DNA of 5,757 nt from a virus: the IMG/VR virus record IMGVR_UViG_3300029830_000112. One strand, given 5' to 3'. A model generated the notes under the pieces. That model was given only the letters and a program-made list of their open reading frames with translations. It did not search any database and was not told where the DNA came from. Below are positions 1,489-5,757 of the stretch, one piece after another (positions within the stretch are counted from its first letter, which is position 1; the number at the start of each line of letters is the position of its first letter). The position numbers and the translations under genes are program-made.

Positions 1489-3177
1489 TTACAGTTTATA
1501 CAGGCCCGGCACGCTATACAGCGGCATTCTTCGTGTGGTTTTGTTTGCCACTCGCACGGCTCCGAAAAATTGCGGTTCGCTCTGCACAATCAATGTTCTT
1601 GCAATCTCCGCTTTGCCCTCTGCCATCCATTCCTGGCTGAGCGTTGGTACTTTACTGTATATATCAGCGTAGTGCCAGAAGTCCAGTGTACCGGTCGCGT
1701 TGCTTCTCATGAGGCCGGACACCCGGTTTGGCTTCATTCGGTAGTCTGCCCACGCTTCTTGGTAACCGAATGTTTCTTCATCGGTTGCGTCACCGGTCAG
1801 CATGATTTCTTTCTTCTTTACCGGCTGTTCCCCTAAATTTGCGAACTGCGGGACATAGTAGTCCAGCCGGTCGCGTCGGCTCCAGAAGCGTTCAAGGCCC
1901 TGTTGGTAGCTTCTATTGTGCCGTACACATGCGACGCCAATGACAAAGCCGTGTTCTTCAAAGCTTTTAGTAAAAGAGCTCTCTCTGATAGGTGTTACGG
2001 ACACCGCACCTGTTTCACCGATGGGTGTATCGTTTTCCGTCTGTTGGCCGCTGGTCTGCACAATCTGGTTTACGTTGACTTGATATCTGCCGCCTCCCAG
2101 ATATTCCGGGATTTGTACGGTCTTGTCACTGATTGTTACATCCCATAATGCGCGTACTTGTTCGCGGTACCTGCTGCCACCTCTAGTCAGTGCTTCATAG
2201 TACTGTTGTACTGCTACGGCATTTCTCAATTCGTTGATGGTTGCCGCTGTTACGGCACTTAAGTCTGCCGTCATCCGTTCGCCTAATTTTAGTGACCCAT
2301 TGAATGTTCCCAGGACTGCGCGTGCTTTTTCGTTTACGTTTTCATAGTCTTGGGTCATTATTTCGTTTCCTGTGCGGTATAGATATCCTCCTGCTCCTTC
2401 TTTCCAGATTCCGGTATTTTCCAGGTCTGCGATTACTAACGGATTGTCTGTTCCGTCTGCCCAGTAAATCGGTGCATTGCCCGACATTGGTAGGTTAATT
2501 TCCGGCCCACGTTGTGGGTAAGGCATACAGGATGTGAAGTAGTCGTGGTATTTATTTACCGGAAGTAGATTTCCACCCAGTACTGCGTTTTTCAGGTCTT
2601 TTTCCAGCGTTTCTGTTGCTTCTTCGTCGAAATTGTAAGTCACGTCTTTGCTATCGTTTTTCAGAACTGCCGCGTTGTCTACGTTTTCGTCTCTAAAAAA
2701 CTCATTCCAGATTTTTACATATGCTCGGATTGGTAATGCATTGACGGTGAATGGTTTATTGATTTTCGTAGGCACACCCATGTAGTCCAAAATTGACTTT
2801 TCGTTTGGTGCAGGCTTTTCAGTTGTGCCGTTGATTTTGATTTGTGGTACTTTATATGCTATTGTTGGCATCCATGGTGTTTCCTCAACTTCACCCATGA
2901 AATTTTTAAATTTGTCCCACAAGATTCTATTTGGCGTGTAGAAGTAATAGAAGTCAATAAATGCATCATCCATGACCGGATATTTCGGTGTGCTCATGCG
3001 AATGATTGCTGTCGTGTCTACCTGGAAAGTGTCTCCCGGTAATACCTCGTCCACGAAAAATGGAATCAGTTTTCCGGAATCAAATGTTGTTAGAATAGTC
3101 TGGTCGCGATTAAATCTTGTTCGGCTTGCGTGCATTTCCGGGATTTGAAGGAAATGTCTTTCATTATTTCTGTTCAT
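1489..3177 (-). CDS. VP1: Major capsid protein (Microviridae VP1 / F-like jelly-roll capsid protein), 562 aa.
   Basis: Size is typical of gokushovirus VP1. The N-terminus MNRNNERHFLQIPEMHASRTRFNRDQ...VLPGDTFQVDTTAIIRMSTP resembles the conserved F/VP1 N-terminal beta-strand region (compare phiX174 F ...PVIAGDSFEMD...). Strong SD AGAGGAA upstream. It is the longest ORF and lies on the strand shared by all genes. Confidence 0.85.
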   Translation of the reverse strand: MNRNNERHFLQIPEMHASRTRFNRDQTILTTFDSGKLIPFFVDEVLPGDTFQVDTTAIIRMSTPKYPVMDDAFIDFYYFYTPNRILWDKFKNFMGEVEETPWMPTIAYKVPQIKINGTTEKPAPNEKSILDYMGVPTKINKPFTVNALPIRAYVKIWNEFFRDENVDNAAVLKNDSKDVTYNFDEEATETLEKDLKNAVLGGNLLPVNKYHDYFTSCMPYPQRGPEINLPMSGNAPIYWADGTDNPLVIADLENTGIWKEGAGGYLYRTGNEIMTQDYENVNEKARAVLGTFNGSLKLGERMTADLSAVTAATINELRNAVAVQQYYEALTRGGSRYREQVRALWDVTISDKTVQIPEYLGGGRYQVNVNQIVQTSGQQTENDTPIGETGAVSVTPIRESSFTKSFEEHGFVIGVACVRHNRSYQQGLERFWSRRDRLDYYVPQFANLGEQPVKKKEIMLTGDATDEETFGYQEAWADYRMKPNRVSGLMRSNATGTLDFWHYADIYSKVPTLSQEWMAEGKAEIARTLIVQSEPQFFGAVRVANKTTRRMPLYSVPGLYKL

Positions 3178-4281: not shown

Positions 4282-4674
4282 TTATACCCCCTTTCTGTAC
4301 TTGCTGTTGCGAGTGTCAAAGTGCACCCACGATTTATAGACGATGATGCCGCAAGAGTTTGGCGCCAGCTTGTCAAGCTCTTTTGCAACCTCCTTTGGCG
4401 TCATGTCTTTCACGGTGATATCGGCCGCCATGCCGCGCGTGTGGTAGCTGTATTTTGCTCCACCTACTTTTTTGTTATGCTCTGGCGTTCTATATCCGCT
4501 TGTTACGATTACTGGCTTTTTAATTGTCTCGCGTAGGATGTCTAACAGGATTGCTAGACACTCGTCTACAAAGACAATTGGTGACCCATCTTTACACGCG
4601 AATTCTTTTACTTTGAAGTGTTTTGTGATTTTGACGTCTGCTTGTTCGTCTAATACATATGCTTTAATTTCCAT
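4282..4674 (-). CDS. Peptidase M15 (LAS-family zinc D-Ala-D-Ala carboxypeptidase / L-Ala-D-Glu peptidase fold, Peptidase_M15_3-like), 130 aa. Likely cell-wall hydrolase / endolysin.
   Basis: The translation contains the LAS-family zinc-binding signature in the canonical order and spacing: KEFACKDGS...SGYRTPEHNKKVGGAKYSYHTRGMAADI...SWVHFDTR (SxHxxGxAxD plus a terminal WVHxD His). ATG at 4672-4674 with SD AGGTGA 5 nt upstream. A sigma70-like promoter lies directly upstream. Confidence 0.75.
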   Translation of the reverse strand: MEIKAYVLDEQADVKITKHFKVKEFACKDGSPIVFVDECLAILLDILRETIKKPVIVTSGYRTPEHNKKVGGAKYSYHTRGMAADITVKDMTPKEVAKELDKLAPNSCGIIVYKSWVHFDTRNSKYRKGV

Positions 4675-4705
4675 GGCGATTCACCTTTTTTTGTATTCTA
4701 TCGGT

Positions 4706-4734
4706 ATTGTATCATTCAATCTCCGAATTTTCAA
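4706..4734 (-). promoter_or_regulatory. Sigma70-like promoter for the peptidase/accessory-gene module: -35 TTGAAA (4729-4734), 17-nt spacer, -10 TACAAT (4706-4711), read on the minus strand.
   Basis: TTGAAA-N17-TACAAT (5/6 and 5/6 matches to consensus, optimal spacing). It lies about 30 nt upstream of the peptidase ATG, within the intergenic region. Confidence 0.45.
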
Positions 4735-4781
4735 GGGTTGCGTTAGCAACTTTTGAAATTTCGGTGATTTCGCCGTTAGGC

Positions 4782-4946
4782 GTTTTCAACAGTTTCCACA
4801 TAGTTTTCAACTTTTCCACATTGTTAAACTTTATCACAATAGAGTATTTTAACAATTCAACAAGTTTTTAACATTTCTTTTAACAATAGTTTCTTTCATA
4901 AAGAAACGTTATTGTGTTATTTTTTAATGGTTTTCAACTTTTCAAC
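4782..4946. repeat. AT-rich iteron region. It holds a 21-bp tandem direct repeat (4782-4802 gttttcaacagtttccacata; 4803-4823 gttttcaacttttccacattg). It holds three same-orientation DnaA-box-like 9-mers (4792-4800 GTTTCCACA, 4812-4820 TTTTCCACA, 4830-4838 TTTATCACA). It holds TTTTCAAC x4 (4783, 4804, 4931, 4939) and TTTTAACA x3 (4847, 4866, 4878). It also holds an 8-bp-stem hairpin gtttctttcataaagaaac (4889-4907).
   Basis: Repeats read directly from the sequence. TTTTCCACA fits the relaxed DnaA box consensus TTWTNCACA exactly, and the other two have one mismatch each. Confidence 0.6.
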
Positions 4947-4980
4947 TACCTCTACTACTACGACTACAACAAGTTAATAA

Positions 4981-5032
4981 ATATATGCGCGTGCGTGCGT
5001 GCGCGTCTACGTGCGCGTATGCGCGCGCATAC
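4981..5032. repeat. Alternating purine-pyrimidine (Z-DNA-prone) tract: atatatgcgcgtgcgtgcgtgcgcgt-ct-acgtgcgcgtatgcgcgcgcatac, including the perfect 16-bp palindrome gtatgcgcgcgcatac (5017-5032).
   Basis: 26 nt of perfect Pu/Py alternation, a 2-nt break, then 24 nt of perfect alternation. (GCGT)n-like composition. The palindrome was verified by reverse complement. Confidence 0.8.
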
Positions 5033-5036
5033 CTTT

Positions 5037-5155
5037 GAGCGCTTTAGCGCGAACCGGCGTCCGCGCGATTTCAGCGCGGTCAGCGGCTGATCAGTCAGCC
5101 GCGACGCCGTGCCAATAGGGGTCCGGGGACGCGAGCGGAACGCGGCCCCGGGATA
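5037..5155. other. GC-rich island (about 70% GC by eye versus about 43% for the genome) made of consecutive stem-loops. These are gcgc-ttta-gcgc (5042-5053); ccgcgc-gatttca-gcgcgg (5061-5079); gcggctga-tcag-tcagccgc (5083-5102, with the embedded palindrome ctgatcag); and the compound hairpin tccgggg-a-cgcg-agcggaa-cgcg-g-ccccgga (5122-5152). Candidate complementary-strand (ssDNA to dsDNA) origin or another structured cis element.
   Basis: Inverted repeats verified by reverse complementation. The compositional contrast with flanking AT-rich DNA is obvious by eye. Confidence 0.5.
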
Positions 5156-5207
5156 TTGTTTAATTTCAATCACTGCCTAGACTGATACATGGAGCCTTTA
5201 AACGGCT

Positions 5208-5242
5208 CTAGCCCAGTACCTACTTGATAGGTACTGGGCTAG
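5208..5242. other. Perfect 15-bp hairpin ctagcccagtaccta-cttga-taggtactgggctag, 15 nt downstream of the VP4 stop. Candidate rolling-circle origin (Rep nick site in the loop) or transcript-end structure.
   Basis: Perfect 15/15 inverted repeat with a 5-nt loop. A second smaller hairpin gagcc-tttaaac-ggctc (5192-5208) abuts it. The loop plus flank on the displayed strand reads ACTTGATA, the same 8-mer as the phiX174 origin core caACTTGATAttaata. Confidence 0.5.
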
Positions 5243-5256
5243 GTGACACCAAAATC

Positions 5257-5757
5257 TTATAAACCGCCTTTTTGGAGCTTTACAGACTTTTTGATAACTC
5301 TTTCTTTTGTCTTTAAGTCCTCTTCAAAATCTGCATTTTCATACTTTAGTCGGTTTTGTTCGATTACTGCTTTCTGTCGGTTCCTCTTGATTCTCCATAA
5401 TCGTTCTGGGTTTTCTGCTTCCATCATTTTTTCGTAATATCGCGGAATTTGTGCTTGTTTTCCGTTGGTGCATTGAATATAGCCTTTTCGCCATATTTCT
5501 TCTTTGTGCTCTTGATAGTAGGAATCGCCAAGTCCCGGTTTTAGGCTCATACATGCAAATGGTTTTTGCTGGCCTAGCTCGTAGTATTGGTTAGCTTTTT
5601 TTCCGTCTATTTCGTACATCTTTTTTGTGACGTACCCCGCAACATATCTATAGGTTTCGGGTGTTGCCTGTGCTATCTGGATTTGACCCATTCCCCATAG
5701 ATTGCACATCCATTCACTTGTATAATATCCGTTATGCCTTATTTTATAGATTTGCTT
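5257..5757 (-). CDS. VP4: Replication initiation protein VP4, C-terminal portion (contains the catalytic Tyr motif III). Same CDS as feature 1..599, continued across the window edge.
   Basis: ORF-track 150-aa ORF at 5257..5709 contains YVAGYVTKK (YxxxYxxKK, 5620-5646), the twin-tyrosine catalytic motif of phiX174-A/VP4-type Reps. The reading frame stays open upstream through 5757, equal to position 77, into 78-599. TAA stop at 5257-5259. Confidence 0.85.
   Translation of the reverse strand, partial: KQIYKIRHNGYYTSEWMCNLWGMGQIQIAQATPETYRYVAGYVTKKMYEIDGKKANQYYELGQQKPFACMSLKPGLGDSYYQEHKEEIWRKGYIQCTNGKQAQIPRYYEKMMEAENPERLWRIKRNRQKAVIEQNRLKYENADFEEDLKTKERVIKKSVKLQKGGL
5681..5757. repeat. Second copy of the 77-nt terminal redundancy (same sequence as 1-77).
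   Basis: Exact 77/77 identity with 1-77. Confidence 0.95.

Follow-up and report, generated by a model that had tools for sequence, protein, structure and literature searches.

A strand-specific alternating hairpin and an exchangeable GC-rich cassette beside a nick-type hairpin: a candidate single-strand origin in a gokushovirus genome

Few phages of the human gut are as abundant as gokushoviruses, yet knowledge of how microviruses start synthesis of the complementary strand comes, as far as we are aware, from the φX174/G4 group. The DNA analysed here (a stretch of 5,757 nt, termed the window) represents a circular gokushovirus genome of 5,680 nt that carries, in an intergenic region, a short island of foreign appearance, and one may ask what role such an island plays. 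The first-pass annotation described a GC-rich segment at 4981-5155 that opens with near-perfect purine/pyrimidine alternation, contains a 16-bp perfect palindrome and continues as consecutive GC-rich hairpins, and all these descriptive claims were borne out. The GC content of the island is 0.674 vs 0.452 for the whole genome, and no other part of the genome is as rich (the highest 175-nt window, 0.680, starts at 4984; the best elsewhere reaches 0.571). The alternation runs over 26 nt (4981-5006) and 25 nt (5008-5032) with a sole break at TCT, whereas the longest run was 21 nt in 500 shuffled genomes and 18 nt in 2000 shuffles of the island. The palindrome, GTATGCGC/GCGCATAC, occupies 5017-5032, and the hairpins that follow the alternating tract include a three-way junction whose stems measure 6, 6 and 8 bp (Table 1). 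A chimeric assembly, which the same annotation named as a reason to dismiss the island, was excluded, since independent assemblies (L005, L070/L130, L121, L047, L128/L133 and L131) carry the same sequence with point differences.

The island is composed of two units, 4984-5031 and 5037-5199, that behave differently in evolution, and the second of them reaches ~45 nt past the right-hand boundary given initially. Upstream lies an AT-rich block, some repeat copies of which fit a relaxed DnaA-box (TTWTNCACA); it is kept in relatives, but in L036 its orientation to the genes is reversed, and in L010 and L064 it has moved to the front of VP4. The anchor that separates this block from the alternating hairpin is found as an exact pattern in more than 119 viral contigs.

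Table 1. Features of the island and its surroundings (window coordinates; the plus strand is antisense to the genes)
Feature	Position	Strand	Basis or remark
AT-rich block, ~26% GC, ~8 copies of TTTTCAAC(A)/TTTCCACA	4780-4950	+	direct repeats D1-D5, D9, D11
Conserved anchor TCTACTACTACGACTACAACAAGTTAATAA, directly 5′ of the alternating hairpin	4951-4980	+	invariant in alignment A1
69-aa Arg-rich GTG ORF, composition artefact	4964-5173	−	no Pfam match
(YG)n hairpin: arms 4984-5005 and 5010-5031, loop TCTA 5006-5009	4984-5031	+	folding
CCTTT direct repeat, left copy, bounds the cassette indel	5032-5036	+	L034 junction
Exchangeable GC-rich cassette, ~163 nt, indel unit, GAGCGC to CATACATGGAGCCTTT	5037-5199	+	presence/absence in relatives
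S1 hairpin GCGC-TTTA-GCGC	5039-5050	+	7 bp in L136 (TGAGCGC/GCGCTCA)
Three-way junction: S2 5055-5060/5104-5109, S3 5061-5066/5074-5079, S4 5083-5090/5095-5102	5055-5109	+	compensatory changes in every stem
Unpaired junction TGCCAATAGGGG	5110-5121	+	invariant columns in alignments A3, A4
S5 hairpin; outer stem varies and covaries	5122-5152	+	alignments, folding
CACTGCCTAGACTGATACATGGAG: nick-like repeats (CTGAATAG / CTGATAC), candidate Rep-binding iterons	5171-5194	+	block conserved in many lineages
Perfect 15-bp hairpin, loop CTTGA, putative Rep nick hairpin	5208-5242	+	z = −6.25
GGTGACACC, conserved flank 3′ of the nick hairpin, before the VP4 stop (5257-5259)	5243-5251	+	conserved in all relatives

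The first unit, the (YG)n hairpin, is built of 22 pairs, some of them G·T wobbles, and only on the plus strand is its pairing perfect. Folding of the window gave z = −5.5 for the plus strand and −2.8 for the minus strand, and the plus strand was the more stable one in all 61 unique versions of the hairpin, whose carriers share 40-95% VP1 identity (mean energies of −37.9 vs −24.3 kcal/mol with RNA parameters, and −21.6 vs −15.6 kcal/mol with DNA parameters). These versions contain 279 G·T pairs on the plus strand (~22% of pairs), each of which is an A·C mismatch on the opposite strand; in a census of the tracts, present in 90 of 119 genomes, CG steps numbered 1034, TG steps 499 and CA steps 107. 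The assignment of the fold to the minus strand (gene-sense, 'virion') is thus contradicted. Alternating tracts were also found in dsDNA phage contigs with related GC modules, but there they are strand-symmetric, therefore the asymmetry goes with ssDNA replicons. Some clades of relatives do not have the (YG)n hairpin.

The second unit, the GC-rich cassette, behaves as a discrete indel. In L034 the sequence ...CATACCTTT is joined straight to AAACGGCTC and the cassette is missing, as it is from L038 and from the two closest GenBank relatives, KX513877 and KT264792; the right copy of the CCTTT repeat (5195-5199) lies inside the cassette unit, and the left boundary, TTCCTTTGAGCGC, is identical in L136 and L137. 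The cassette is carried, as one copy per genome, by L005, L070, L121, L047, L128, L131, L136, L137 and L161, other modules occupy its slot in other lineages, and about half of the relatives contain no GC module at all. Absence from close relatives had been named at the outset as an argument against an origin and, applied here, it means that the cassette fails as an essential one. On the other hand, the early suggestion of a horizontally acquired fragment holds for 5037-5199, which is an indel unit shared with plasmid-like DNAs encoding Rep_1.

The structure of the cassette is under selection for pairing. In the cassette alignment 94.3% of cells are paired vs 25-48% in slid controls, seven pairs are changed on both sides, and the covariation score was reached in none of 500 shuffles. 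The S3 and S4 stems are wholly rewritten in L137 with pairing retained, and this copy scores 100.6 bits under a covariance model built without it; in L047, L128 and L131 a single hairpin stands in place of the three-way junction. The copies in Rep_1 plasmid-like contigs likewise show compensatory changes and invariant junctions, the apex of S5 (GGGGACGCG-AGCGGAA-CGCGGCCCC) is invariant across phage and plasmid-like copies, and segments of 12-25 nt do not vary between the two kinds of replicon. The cassette, with its Watson-Crick stems, folds alike on either strand (−65.1 vs −65.7 kcal/mol), therefore it is the (YG)n hairpin that provides the strand specificity. Near its right end, the 5171-5194 block is repeated two to four times in L019, L054 and L103 and, judged by its nick-like repeats, it may consist of Rep-binding iterons.

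Searches for the cassette elsewhere returned little. With blastn, no phages beyond close relatives were matched, and among 72,556 plasmids there were chance matches only. A host origin of the cassette was considered and rejected, as the sole match in a bacterial genome (a Pseudohongiella MAG, L129) is a 23-mer shared by chance, inside an unrelated coding region of high GC content; the metagenome matches L132 and L134 are 23-nt chance matches within unrelated GC-rich sequence, the 15-mer matches L138-L158 are due to chance, and a match of φMH2K to the covariance model at 19 bits is not convincing. Rfam 15 applied to the whole window gave sub-threshold microRNA and sX15 matches only, arising from the alternating repeat (the microRNA models scored 21-33 bits against gathering thresholds of 81-100), Rfam searches of the related modules of other phages gave no matches, and no tRNA or tmRNA was detected in the window. 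The 69-aa ORF that reads through the island was rejected as a gene, in agreement with its first description as an artefact: it matches no family, the region is missing in close relatives, and the indels of the cassette, copies of which differ in length by 1, 2, 34 and 36 nt, shift its frame. A 58-aa ORF without a family match was also rejected as protein-coding.

What stands next to these two units? The hairpin at 5208-5242 bears the motif CTTGATA in its loop, read on the strand antisense to the genes, and CTTGATA is the nick site of pC194-type replicons (PMC10378824). The stems of such nick-type hairpins covary across lineages while YTTGATAG is retained; in 119 genomes this motif was counted 209 times on the antisense strand vs once on the sense strand. 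The conserved flank GGTGACACC is kept in L136, L137 and L161 as well. VP4, a Rep of the HUH kind, has the active-site motif YVAGYVTKK, the YxxxY core of which is that of φX174 A-type proteins. Judged by the motif, the putative Rep nick would fall between G5226 and A5227 (TACTTG/ATAGG, nick at the slash). The likeness to double-strand origins of the pC194/pUB110/φX174 type (CTTG/ATA) is seen in the loop, which displays TACTTGATAGG, but the arrangement differs: in the pC194 and pUB110 controls CTTGATA lies upstream of rep, on the rep strand, which is the displaced and T-rich one, whereas in the window, and likewise in L136, L137 and L161, it lies antisense to rep and downstream of it.

The base composition of the strands bears on the same question. 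At fourfold sites the sense strand of the window has 0.48 A and 0.10 T, the plus strand thus being T-rich, and A exceeds T on the sense strand in all 119 relatives; in Chp2 and SpV4 it is the sense strand that is rich in T (0.51-0.65). The deamination signature is incomplete, because on the plus strand C is no rarer than G (0.21 vs 0.20). Chp2 and SpV4 were also tried as controls for the polarity of the motif and set aside: both show YTTGATA in sense orientation, yet the hairpins at these sites do not reach significance (z = −0.6 and −1.4), and in SpV4 the motif falls within an ORF.

The cassette, the (YG)n hairpin and the nick-type hairpin all recur in L136, L137 and L161, contigs from human gut metagenomes that encode Rep_1 (PF01446, E = 4e-49) and no microvirus genes. 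These Rep_1 replicons with a phage-type origin are 4.1-4.4 kb long; in the more distant Rep_1/Mob_Pre plasmids L162-L166 all three elements are missing.

Taken together, the island may be a plasmid-type single-strand (lagging- or complementary-strand) origin region located beside the nick hairpin, with the cassette as an exchangeable accessory, and we give this reading about an even chance of being correct. Single-strand origins (sso) of rolling-circle replication (RCR) plasmids are active only when single-stranded, usually lie just upstream of the nick and are dispensable but helpful (PMC4595007, PMC5703833); in most RCR plasmids the sso is placed upstream of the double-strand origin (PMC4595007), and ssos exchange as cassettes and limit host range (PMC5703833). 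[quoted passage not shown] The region described here resembles them in length (~160 nt, like ssoA), in its position on the strand of the nick motif, in cassette behaviour and in its presence in Rep_1 RCR replicons. It is non-coding and its intrastrand pairing is selected, as the folds, the covariation and the rejection of the ORF indicate. In the clade of the window, the alternating hairpin and the cassette are placed immediately 5′ of the CTTGATA hairpin and share its strand, the exception being the L010/L064 clade, in which the module is 3′ of the nick-type hairpin. As to the strand, the (YG)n hairpin points to the plus one and the cassette to neither, the displaced strand being deduced from the orientation of CTTGATA. 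The differences from known ssos are the 22-bp alternating CG/TG hairpin, the three-way junction, the hairpin with an invariant apex, the microvirus as carrier and a function that is predicted. A covariance model (R1) did not match pC194 ssoA or pUB110 ssoU (L159, L160) at E ≤ 5. The CS-6 consensus TAGCG(A/T) was not found in a terminal loop: the window has TAGCGC over the S1 loop and stem (5045-5050), L136, L137 and L161 have GTCAGCGC, and TAGCGA occurs in L065 only.

Complementary-strand origins of ssDNA coliphages (the n′/PriA site of φX174, G4 ori-c and the minus-strand origin of M13/f1) are likewise intergenic hairpin clusters, which are thought to persist under SSB and to recruit a host priming enzyme. 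However, they fold on the packaged, gene-sense strand whereas the structure described here is antisense-specific, there is no sequence similarity, and the GC cassette is not universal but an accessory. The first-pass proposal of a complementary-strand origin therefore stands in part: the region is non-coding and structured, its pairing is selected, it adjoins a probable nick site and is shared with Rep_1 replicons, but the strand it was assigned to does not agree. Hairpins of other microviruses have been proposed, without proof, as complementary-strand origins (PMC9865509), and no literature on this particular tract was found, only the general suggestion that intergenic hairpins of microviruses may prime the minus strand.

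From these features we infer the nick site, the strand nicked and the priming function as follows. Rep (VP4) would nick the loop 5223-5227 on the CTTG/ATA strand, i.e., the plus strand of the window, which would then become single-stranded. On this strand, 5′ of the nick, the 22-bp (YG)n hairpin and, in this lineage, the five-stem fold of the cassette would form and, existing only as ssDNA, might attract a priming enzyme of the host, be it RNA polymerase, primase or a PriA-type primosome, by which the ssDNA would be converted to duplex. The (YG)n hairpin would be the widely conserved core of the origin, while the cassette, presumably acquired by recombination at the CCTTT microhomology, would probably adjust the efficiency of priming to a particular host. 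Replication from such a nick would run head-on against transcription, a consequence that counts against a single-strand origin at this place.

Other functions have to be weighed against a single-strand origin. A transcription terminator or a REP-like stabiliser of mRNA 3′ ends, which would stop read-through or 3′ exonucleases on a genome-long sense transcript, fits the position directly after the VP4 stop, after the rep-ORF225 operon in L136 and L161 and between operons in the vicinity of the terminase gene in dsDNA phage contigs, with a constant orientation to the neighbouring genes; a second hairpin of the form AAGGGG-stem-CCCCTT(TT) in many lineages and the variable presence expected of an accessory element are also in its favour. 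Yet no terminator-like site was found on either strand in the scanned interval 4600-5320, the sense strand has no U-run after the hairpins, and invariant unpaired junction and loop sequences are unexpected for a plain terminator. In the sense RNA, A·C mismatches interrupt the (YG)n hairpin at ~22% of pairs in 61 of 61 versions, therefore selection does not act on the sense transcript, and we regard this explanation as unlikely. For the opposite transcript speaks the G·U-compatible pairing, which is found on the plus strand only: a small structured RNA antisense to the genes could act as a counter-transcript controlling Rep, as in RCR plasmids, or as a primer RNA, and many lineages have a TATAAT-like box 5-8 nt upstream of the hairpin while some (L049, L078, L036) have T-runs after the last plus-strand hairpin. 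In the window, however, neither a plus-strand promoter-like site nor a terminator was found, the only good promoter in the scan being that of the peptidase (4734-4706, minus strand); a conserved promoter in the upstream block is not possible because the block is inverted in L036, no Rfam family was recognised apart from the sub-threshold microRNA matches to the alternating repeat, and the target of the RNA would be a 3′ untranslated region instead of a Rep leader, which leaves such an RNA only a small chance.

The presence of a discrete indel flanked by a 5-nt direct repeat, its absence from the closest relatives and the differing modules in the same slot may also suggest a mobile cassette that is selfish or neutral (a MITE-like element or an insert at a recombination hotspot), i.e., GC-rich DNA brought to the origin by illegitimate recombination with no role for the phage, and RCR replicons are known for cassette shuffling via ssDNA recombination (PMC5703833). 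This is quite unlikely, given that compensatory changes keep the structure, that the same segments remain invariant in phages and plasmid-like replicons, that a single copy is found per genome with a constant slot and orientation to the nick hairpin, and that neither a transposase nor terminal inverted repeats are present. As for the duplex RF, the 51 nt of CG/TG alternation are a classical Z-prone sequence (both runs, 26 and 25 nt, exceed the 12 nt of alternating CG/TG that define such a tract), and a near-palindrome able to extrude, close to a nick hairpin that needs extrusion, might absorb superhelical stress or aid origin melting. The Z-DNA-prone character noticed at first sight is thus real in its perfect alternation, in which the tract resembles d(CG)n and d(TG)n; nevertheless, Z-DNA requires neither the conserved central interruption of 3-7 nt nor TG, instead of CA, on one strand in both arms, so that the strand asymmetry, the interruption and the maintenance as a hairpin are left unexplained, one arm of a cruciform would be poor and the structure asymmetric, and the GC cassette does not alternate, which makes this explanation very improbable. 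Least credible of all is a XerCD or other recombinase attachment site for lysogeny, put forward early as an alternative: dif-like sites occur in non-coding regions of some gokushoviruses (PMC7062461) and the tract holds GTGCGCAT-like strings, but the best match that the non-coding region offers to the dif consensus sequences of E. coli, B. subtilis and streptococci/lactococci (dif_SL) differs at 13 positions over 28-31 nt and is no better than what coding DNA yields, and the chance 23-mer already mentioned is the only bacterial-genome match to the cassette.

According to descriptions of the Microviridae, it is the gene-sense strand that is packaged, which speaks against an origin on the plus strand unless this clade differs. 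Could it differ? It is possible, though on balance doubtful, that this gokushovirus clade nicks, displaces and packages the strand antisense to all genes, that the Rep_1 replicons nick and displace theirs likewise, and that the island is a lagging-strand origin on the packaged strand. Such negative-sense microviruses are suggested by CTTGATA within the sole conserved hairpin on the antisense strand, by the G·T-only pairing of the (YG)n hairpin on that strand, by the sso-like modules directly 5′ of the motif, and by the T-richness of the antisense strand at fourfold sites in every relative, as opposed to the sense strand of Chp2 and SpV4. If the nicked strand is the packaged strand, these phages would carry negative-sense DNA. 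The small Rep_1 replicons, with their phage-type origin, might in addition be natural 'phagemids' or satellites packaged in gokushovirus capsids.

The locus supplies a candidate complementary-strand origin of a microvirus with defined boundaries, a covariance model and natural presence/absence variants. Origin modules are exchanged between microviruses and rolling-circle plasmid-like replicons, and therefore host range may depend on them. Origins in metagenomic ssDNA replicons can be located with the (YG)n hairpin and the GC modules as markers, and the strand asymmetry raises the question whether the strand packaged by these phages is opposite to the one assumed in the definition of the family.

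The GC-rich segment at 4981-5155 is a real, structured and conserved feature of this genome. Everything that the first-pass annotation described there was found in the sequence, and since several independent assemblies carry the island, it is not a chimera of one assembly. Alignment of four GenBank relatives, together with more than 120 related contigs that were found via a conserved flanking block, splits the island into two elements, an alternating tract termed here the (YG)n hairpin and a discrete unit, the cassette, bounded by CCTTT repeats (table). In the related genome L034 the hairpin is identical, but CCTTT is joined directly to AAACGGCTC with no cassette, and the unit is also missing from the two closest GenBank genomes; elsewhere the same slot is, depending on the lineage, empty or occupied by AT-rich repeats or other GC-rich hairpin modules. 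In another related contig (L135:4158-4239) the 3' arm of S4 follows straight on the 5' arm of the (YG)n hairpin (GCGTGCGT followed by CAGTCAGCCGC); this fusion is due either to a natural deletion or to collapse of the assembly in a repeat-rich region.

Coordinates of the island, of the genes around it and of related elements
Feature	Position	Strand	Remark
(YG)n hairpin	4984-5031		alternating tract
CCTTT repeats	5032-5036; 5195-5199		cassette boundaries
Cassette	5037-5199		
S1	5039-5050		cassette fold
Three-way junction	S2 5055-5060/5104-5109; S3 5061-5066/5074-5079; S4 5083-5090/5095-5102		cassette fold
Invariant unpaired TGCCAATAGGGG	5110-5121		
S5	5122-5152		invariant apex GGGGACGCG-AGCGGAA-CGCGGCCCC
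Nick-type hairpin, loop YTTGATAG, flank GGTGACACC	window 5208-5251; L136 ~1195-1245; L161 ~1150-1200 (antisense)	antisense to rep	
VP4/Rep	from 599, wrapping round to 5257	minus	spans circular junction
VP2	1450-596	minus	
VP1	3177-1489	minus	
Chp2-type scaffold protein	3574-3164	minus	
ORF5-like protein	3806-3567	minus	
75-aa ORF		minus	
Peptidase M15	4674-4282	minus	
Core ACCGNCAGCCCCC-loop-GGGGGCGTNNGNCGGAAGGGGGG	L168, L173, L177, L184, L192, L194, L205, L207, L213, L217		high-GC tailed-phage contigs

An exact terminal overlap of 77 nt (1-77/5681-5757) shows that the genome is circular and complete at 5,680 nt; it is that of a gut gokushovirus with ~84% identity to KX513877 and KT264792. All genes are encoded on the minus strand, and the island lies within the sole long non-coding region (4675-5256). 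The peptidase M15 gene is preceded, at 4734-4706 on the minus strand, by a sigma-70-type promoter of good quality (TTGAAA-17-TACAAT plus an upstream TG), downstream of which lies the ribosome-binding site AAAGGTGA (region 4706-4769, minus strand). The promoter overlaps a 24-nt inverted repeat (4718-4741/4746-4769), which could be an operator. These promoter and Shine-Dalgarno signals suggest a host that uses sigma-70-type promoters and Shine-Dalgarno sites, possibly a Firmicute. Between the promoter and the island there is an AT-rich block (4780-4980) of about eight repeats, TTTTCAAC(A)/TTTCCACA, with a conserved terminal CTACTACTACGNCTACAACAAGTTAA; some of the repeats, e.g., TTTTCCACA at 4812-4820, match the relaxed DnaA box TTWTNCACA. 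Counterparts of the block were found in the related genomes L036 (1540-1750) and L010 (3160-3375). In L036 the entire block has the opposite orientation with respect to the genes, and in the L010/L064 clade it is placed between VP2 and VP4; it thus behaves as an independent, orientation-free module.

The alternating tract is kept in 90 of 119 related genomes (VP1 40-95% identical to that of the window), always as two runs of YG dinucleotides with 2-7 nt between them. When the genomes are oriented by VP1, the antisense-strand steps are CG (1034), TG (499) and only rarely CA (107). Because TG steps far exceed CA steps, the antisense strand (the plus strand of the window) forms, in all 61 unique versions, an uninterrupted stem of ~20 bp in which ~22% of the pairs are G·T, whereas the gene-sense strand has A·C mismatches at those positions. 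RNA parameters give these 61 versions a mean energy of -37.9 kcal/mol antisense and -24.3 gene-sense, and DNA parameters one of -21.6 and -15.6; for the window itself the plus-strand fold has z = -5.5, the minus-strand fold z = -2.8. Paired G-to-A substitutions in one relative, L108, turn G·T pairs into A-T pairs. It follows that the user of the hairpin acts on the plus strand or that C-to-T change is concentrated there; under either option the plus strand is singled out, and not the minus strand in which the first-pass annotation had assumed the element to fold.

The cassette stems are Watson-Crick and either strand folds equally well. Across the copies in other genomes compensatory changes were found in every variable stem. 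In a six-sequence alignment 94.3% of cells are paired, against 25-48% with slid partners, both sides change in seven pairs, and the covariation score was reached by 0 of 500 shuffles. The covariance model built from the same six sequences recovers L137, in which S3 and S4 are entirely different in sequence, at 100.6 bits; L047, L128 and L131, variants with a single hairpin, score 80 bits, and weak, correctly placed matches fall in the GC modules of further lineages, L065, L045, L024, L071 and L036 (E = 0.001-0.09).

The commoner gokushovirus module, for which Rfam gave no family match, consists of two hairpins, H-A (GCRGCAGCCCC-loop-GGGGCG..GACGC) and then AAGGGG-stem-loop-stem-CCCCTT. The H-A core with the following AAGGGG is present in 90 viral contigs, ~14 of which derive from tailed dsDNA phages and are fragments of high GC; in these the core lies ~1 kb from the large-terminase gene, amid further GC hairpins and flanked by alternating CG/TG/CA tracts. 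This distribution suggests that structured elements between genes form a wider class. The tracts of the dsDNA phages are strand-symmetric, so that the TG-only asymmetry is a property specific to ssDNA and rolling-circle (RCR) replicons.

Exact-pattern scans located the cassette in two human-gut metagenome contigs, L136 (4,456 nt) and L137 (4,103 nt), and a third, L161 (4,406 nt), was reached via protein homology. All three have a gene for a Rep_1 initiator (PF01446, E = 4e-49), and none codes for microvirus proteins. They share a three-part layout that lies antisense to rep: the (YG)n hairpin, which measures 31+26 nt in L161, the cassette, whose left boundary TTCCTTTGAGCGC is that of the window, and a nick-type hairpin, GGGCACAGTACC-CAACTCGATA-GGTACTGTGCCC and then GGTGACAC, which resembles that of the window. 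More distant Rep_1/Mob_Pre plasmids are without all three origin elements, and the sole bacterial-genome match to the cassette proved to be a chance 23-mer. The three replicons also share a conserved ORF of ~225 aa beside Rep_1 and the gokushovirus-type origin region, and relatives of their Rep protein come from metagenome assemblies only. As the size of the replicons fits a gokushovirus capsid, they could be natural phagemid-like satellites.

The nick-type hairpin of the window has a perfect 15-bp stem (5208-5242; z = -6.25); among lineages its stems covary and the loop YTTGATAG is kept. A matching YVAGYVTKK motif is present in VP4. The protein A of φX174 nicks at CTTGATA. Origins of the pC194 type are nicked at the same sequence (PMC10378824). 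In pC194 and pUB110 the origin TTCTTATCTTGATA was confirmed to lie on the same strand as rep and upstream of it, whereas in the window, L136, L137 and L161 the motif is antisense to rep. Between cassette and hairpin stand repeats similar to the nick sequence (CTGCCTAG, ACTGATAC), which may serve as Rep-binding iterons. A second conserved CTTGATAG (5511-5518, plus strand) lies ~288 nt from the hairpin copy, the same distance as in most relatives, antisense inside the VP4 coding region at the YYQEH motif; it may simply reflect protein conservation or be a secondary Rep site.

The plus strand thus reads (YG)n hairpin, cassette, iteron-like repeats and putative nick site. In most RCR plasmids the single-strand origin (sso) is located just upstream of the double-strand origin (dso) and works only in single-stranded DNA and in one of the two orientations (PMC4595007); the plus-strand order of the window is the same sso-then-dso arrangement. 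The ssoA type measures ~160 nt, and ssos swap as cassettes and restrict host range (PMC5703833). On the grounds of the RCR-like order, the ssoA-like size and the cassette exchange, the island is read as an sso region; it would represent a new type within an already known class, that of sso or complementary-strand origins. The (YG)n hairpin would be the conserved core of this lagging-strand origin and the GC cassette its exchangeable accessory. The complementary-strand origin proposed in the first-pass annotation was a reasonable guess, in need of correction as to strand, boundaries and essentiality. The island does not belong to ssoA or ssoU, CS-6 being unconserved and the covariance model finding nothing in pC194 or pUB110.

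Other roles were weighed against an origin. In all three replicon types the element follows the last gene, as one would expect of a terminator or mRNA stabiliser, but this explanation fails on the lack of U-runs and on a (YG)n hairpin that is mismatched on the sense strand. An antisense small RNA would carry the pairing of the plus strand as G·U pairs and so fits that pattern, although no conserved promoter or terminator was found for it. The indel pattern agrees with a functionless insert, with which covariation and invariant junctions are at odds. A Z-DNA element and a dif site are likewise addressed by the evidence, and neither is favoured.

By definition, Microviridae package the gene-sense strand. 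Four observations on the window and its relatives, i.e., nick-motif orientation, G·T asymmetry, sso-like position and fourfold-site composition, suggest instead that the single-stranded form is the plus strand. YTTGATAG occurs 209 times antisense and once sense in the 119 genomes, counts that are inflated by shared ancestry and base composition. At fourfold sites of the gene-sense strand the window has A 0.48 and T 0.10, A exceeds T in 119 of 119 relatives, and L136 has A 0.37-0.48 and T 0.06-0.12; T reaches 0.51 in Chp2 and 0.65 in SpV4. Against negative sense stand a plus-strand C that is not depleted relative to G, replication that would meet transcription head-on, and the module of the L010/L064 clade, which lies 3' of the nick-type hairpin. 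The antisense nick-type motif in both phage and Rep_1 replicons, with A far above T at fourfold sites, makes packaging of the antisense strand by these phages possible, albeit rather unlikely. In φMH2K (L127), a cultured gokushovirus, the fourfold sites are also A-rich and T-poor (A 0.46, T 0.27), and no experimental determination of its polarity was found. Its TCTTGATAG is on the antisense strand only (4365). The intergenic region of φMH2K is 72% GC and contains a 19-bit antisense match to the cassette model (2778-2898, minus strand), too weak to convince. The island raises an unusually testable question on genome polarity, for which φMH2K would be a convenient organism.
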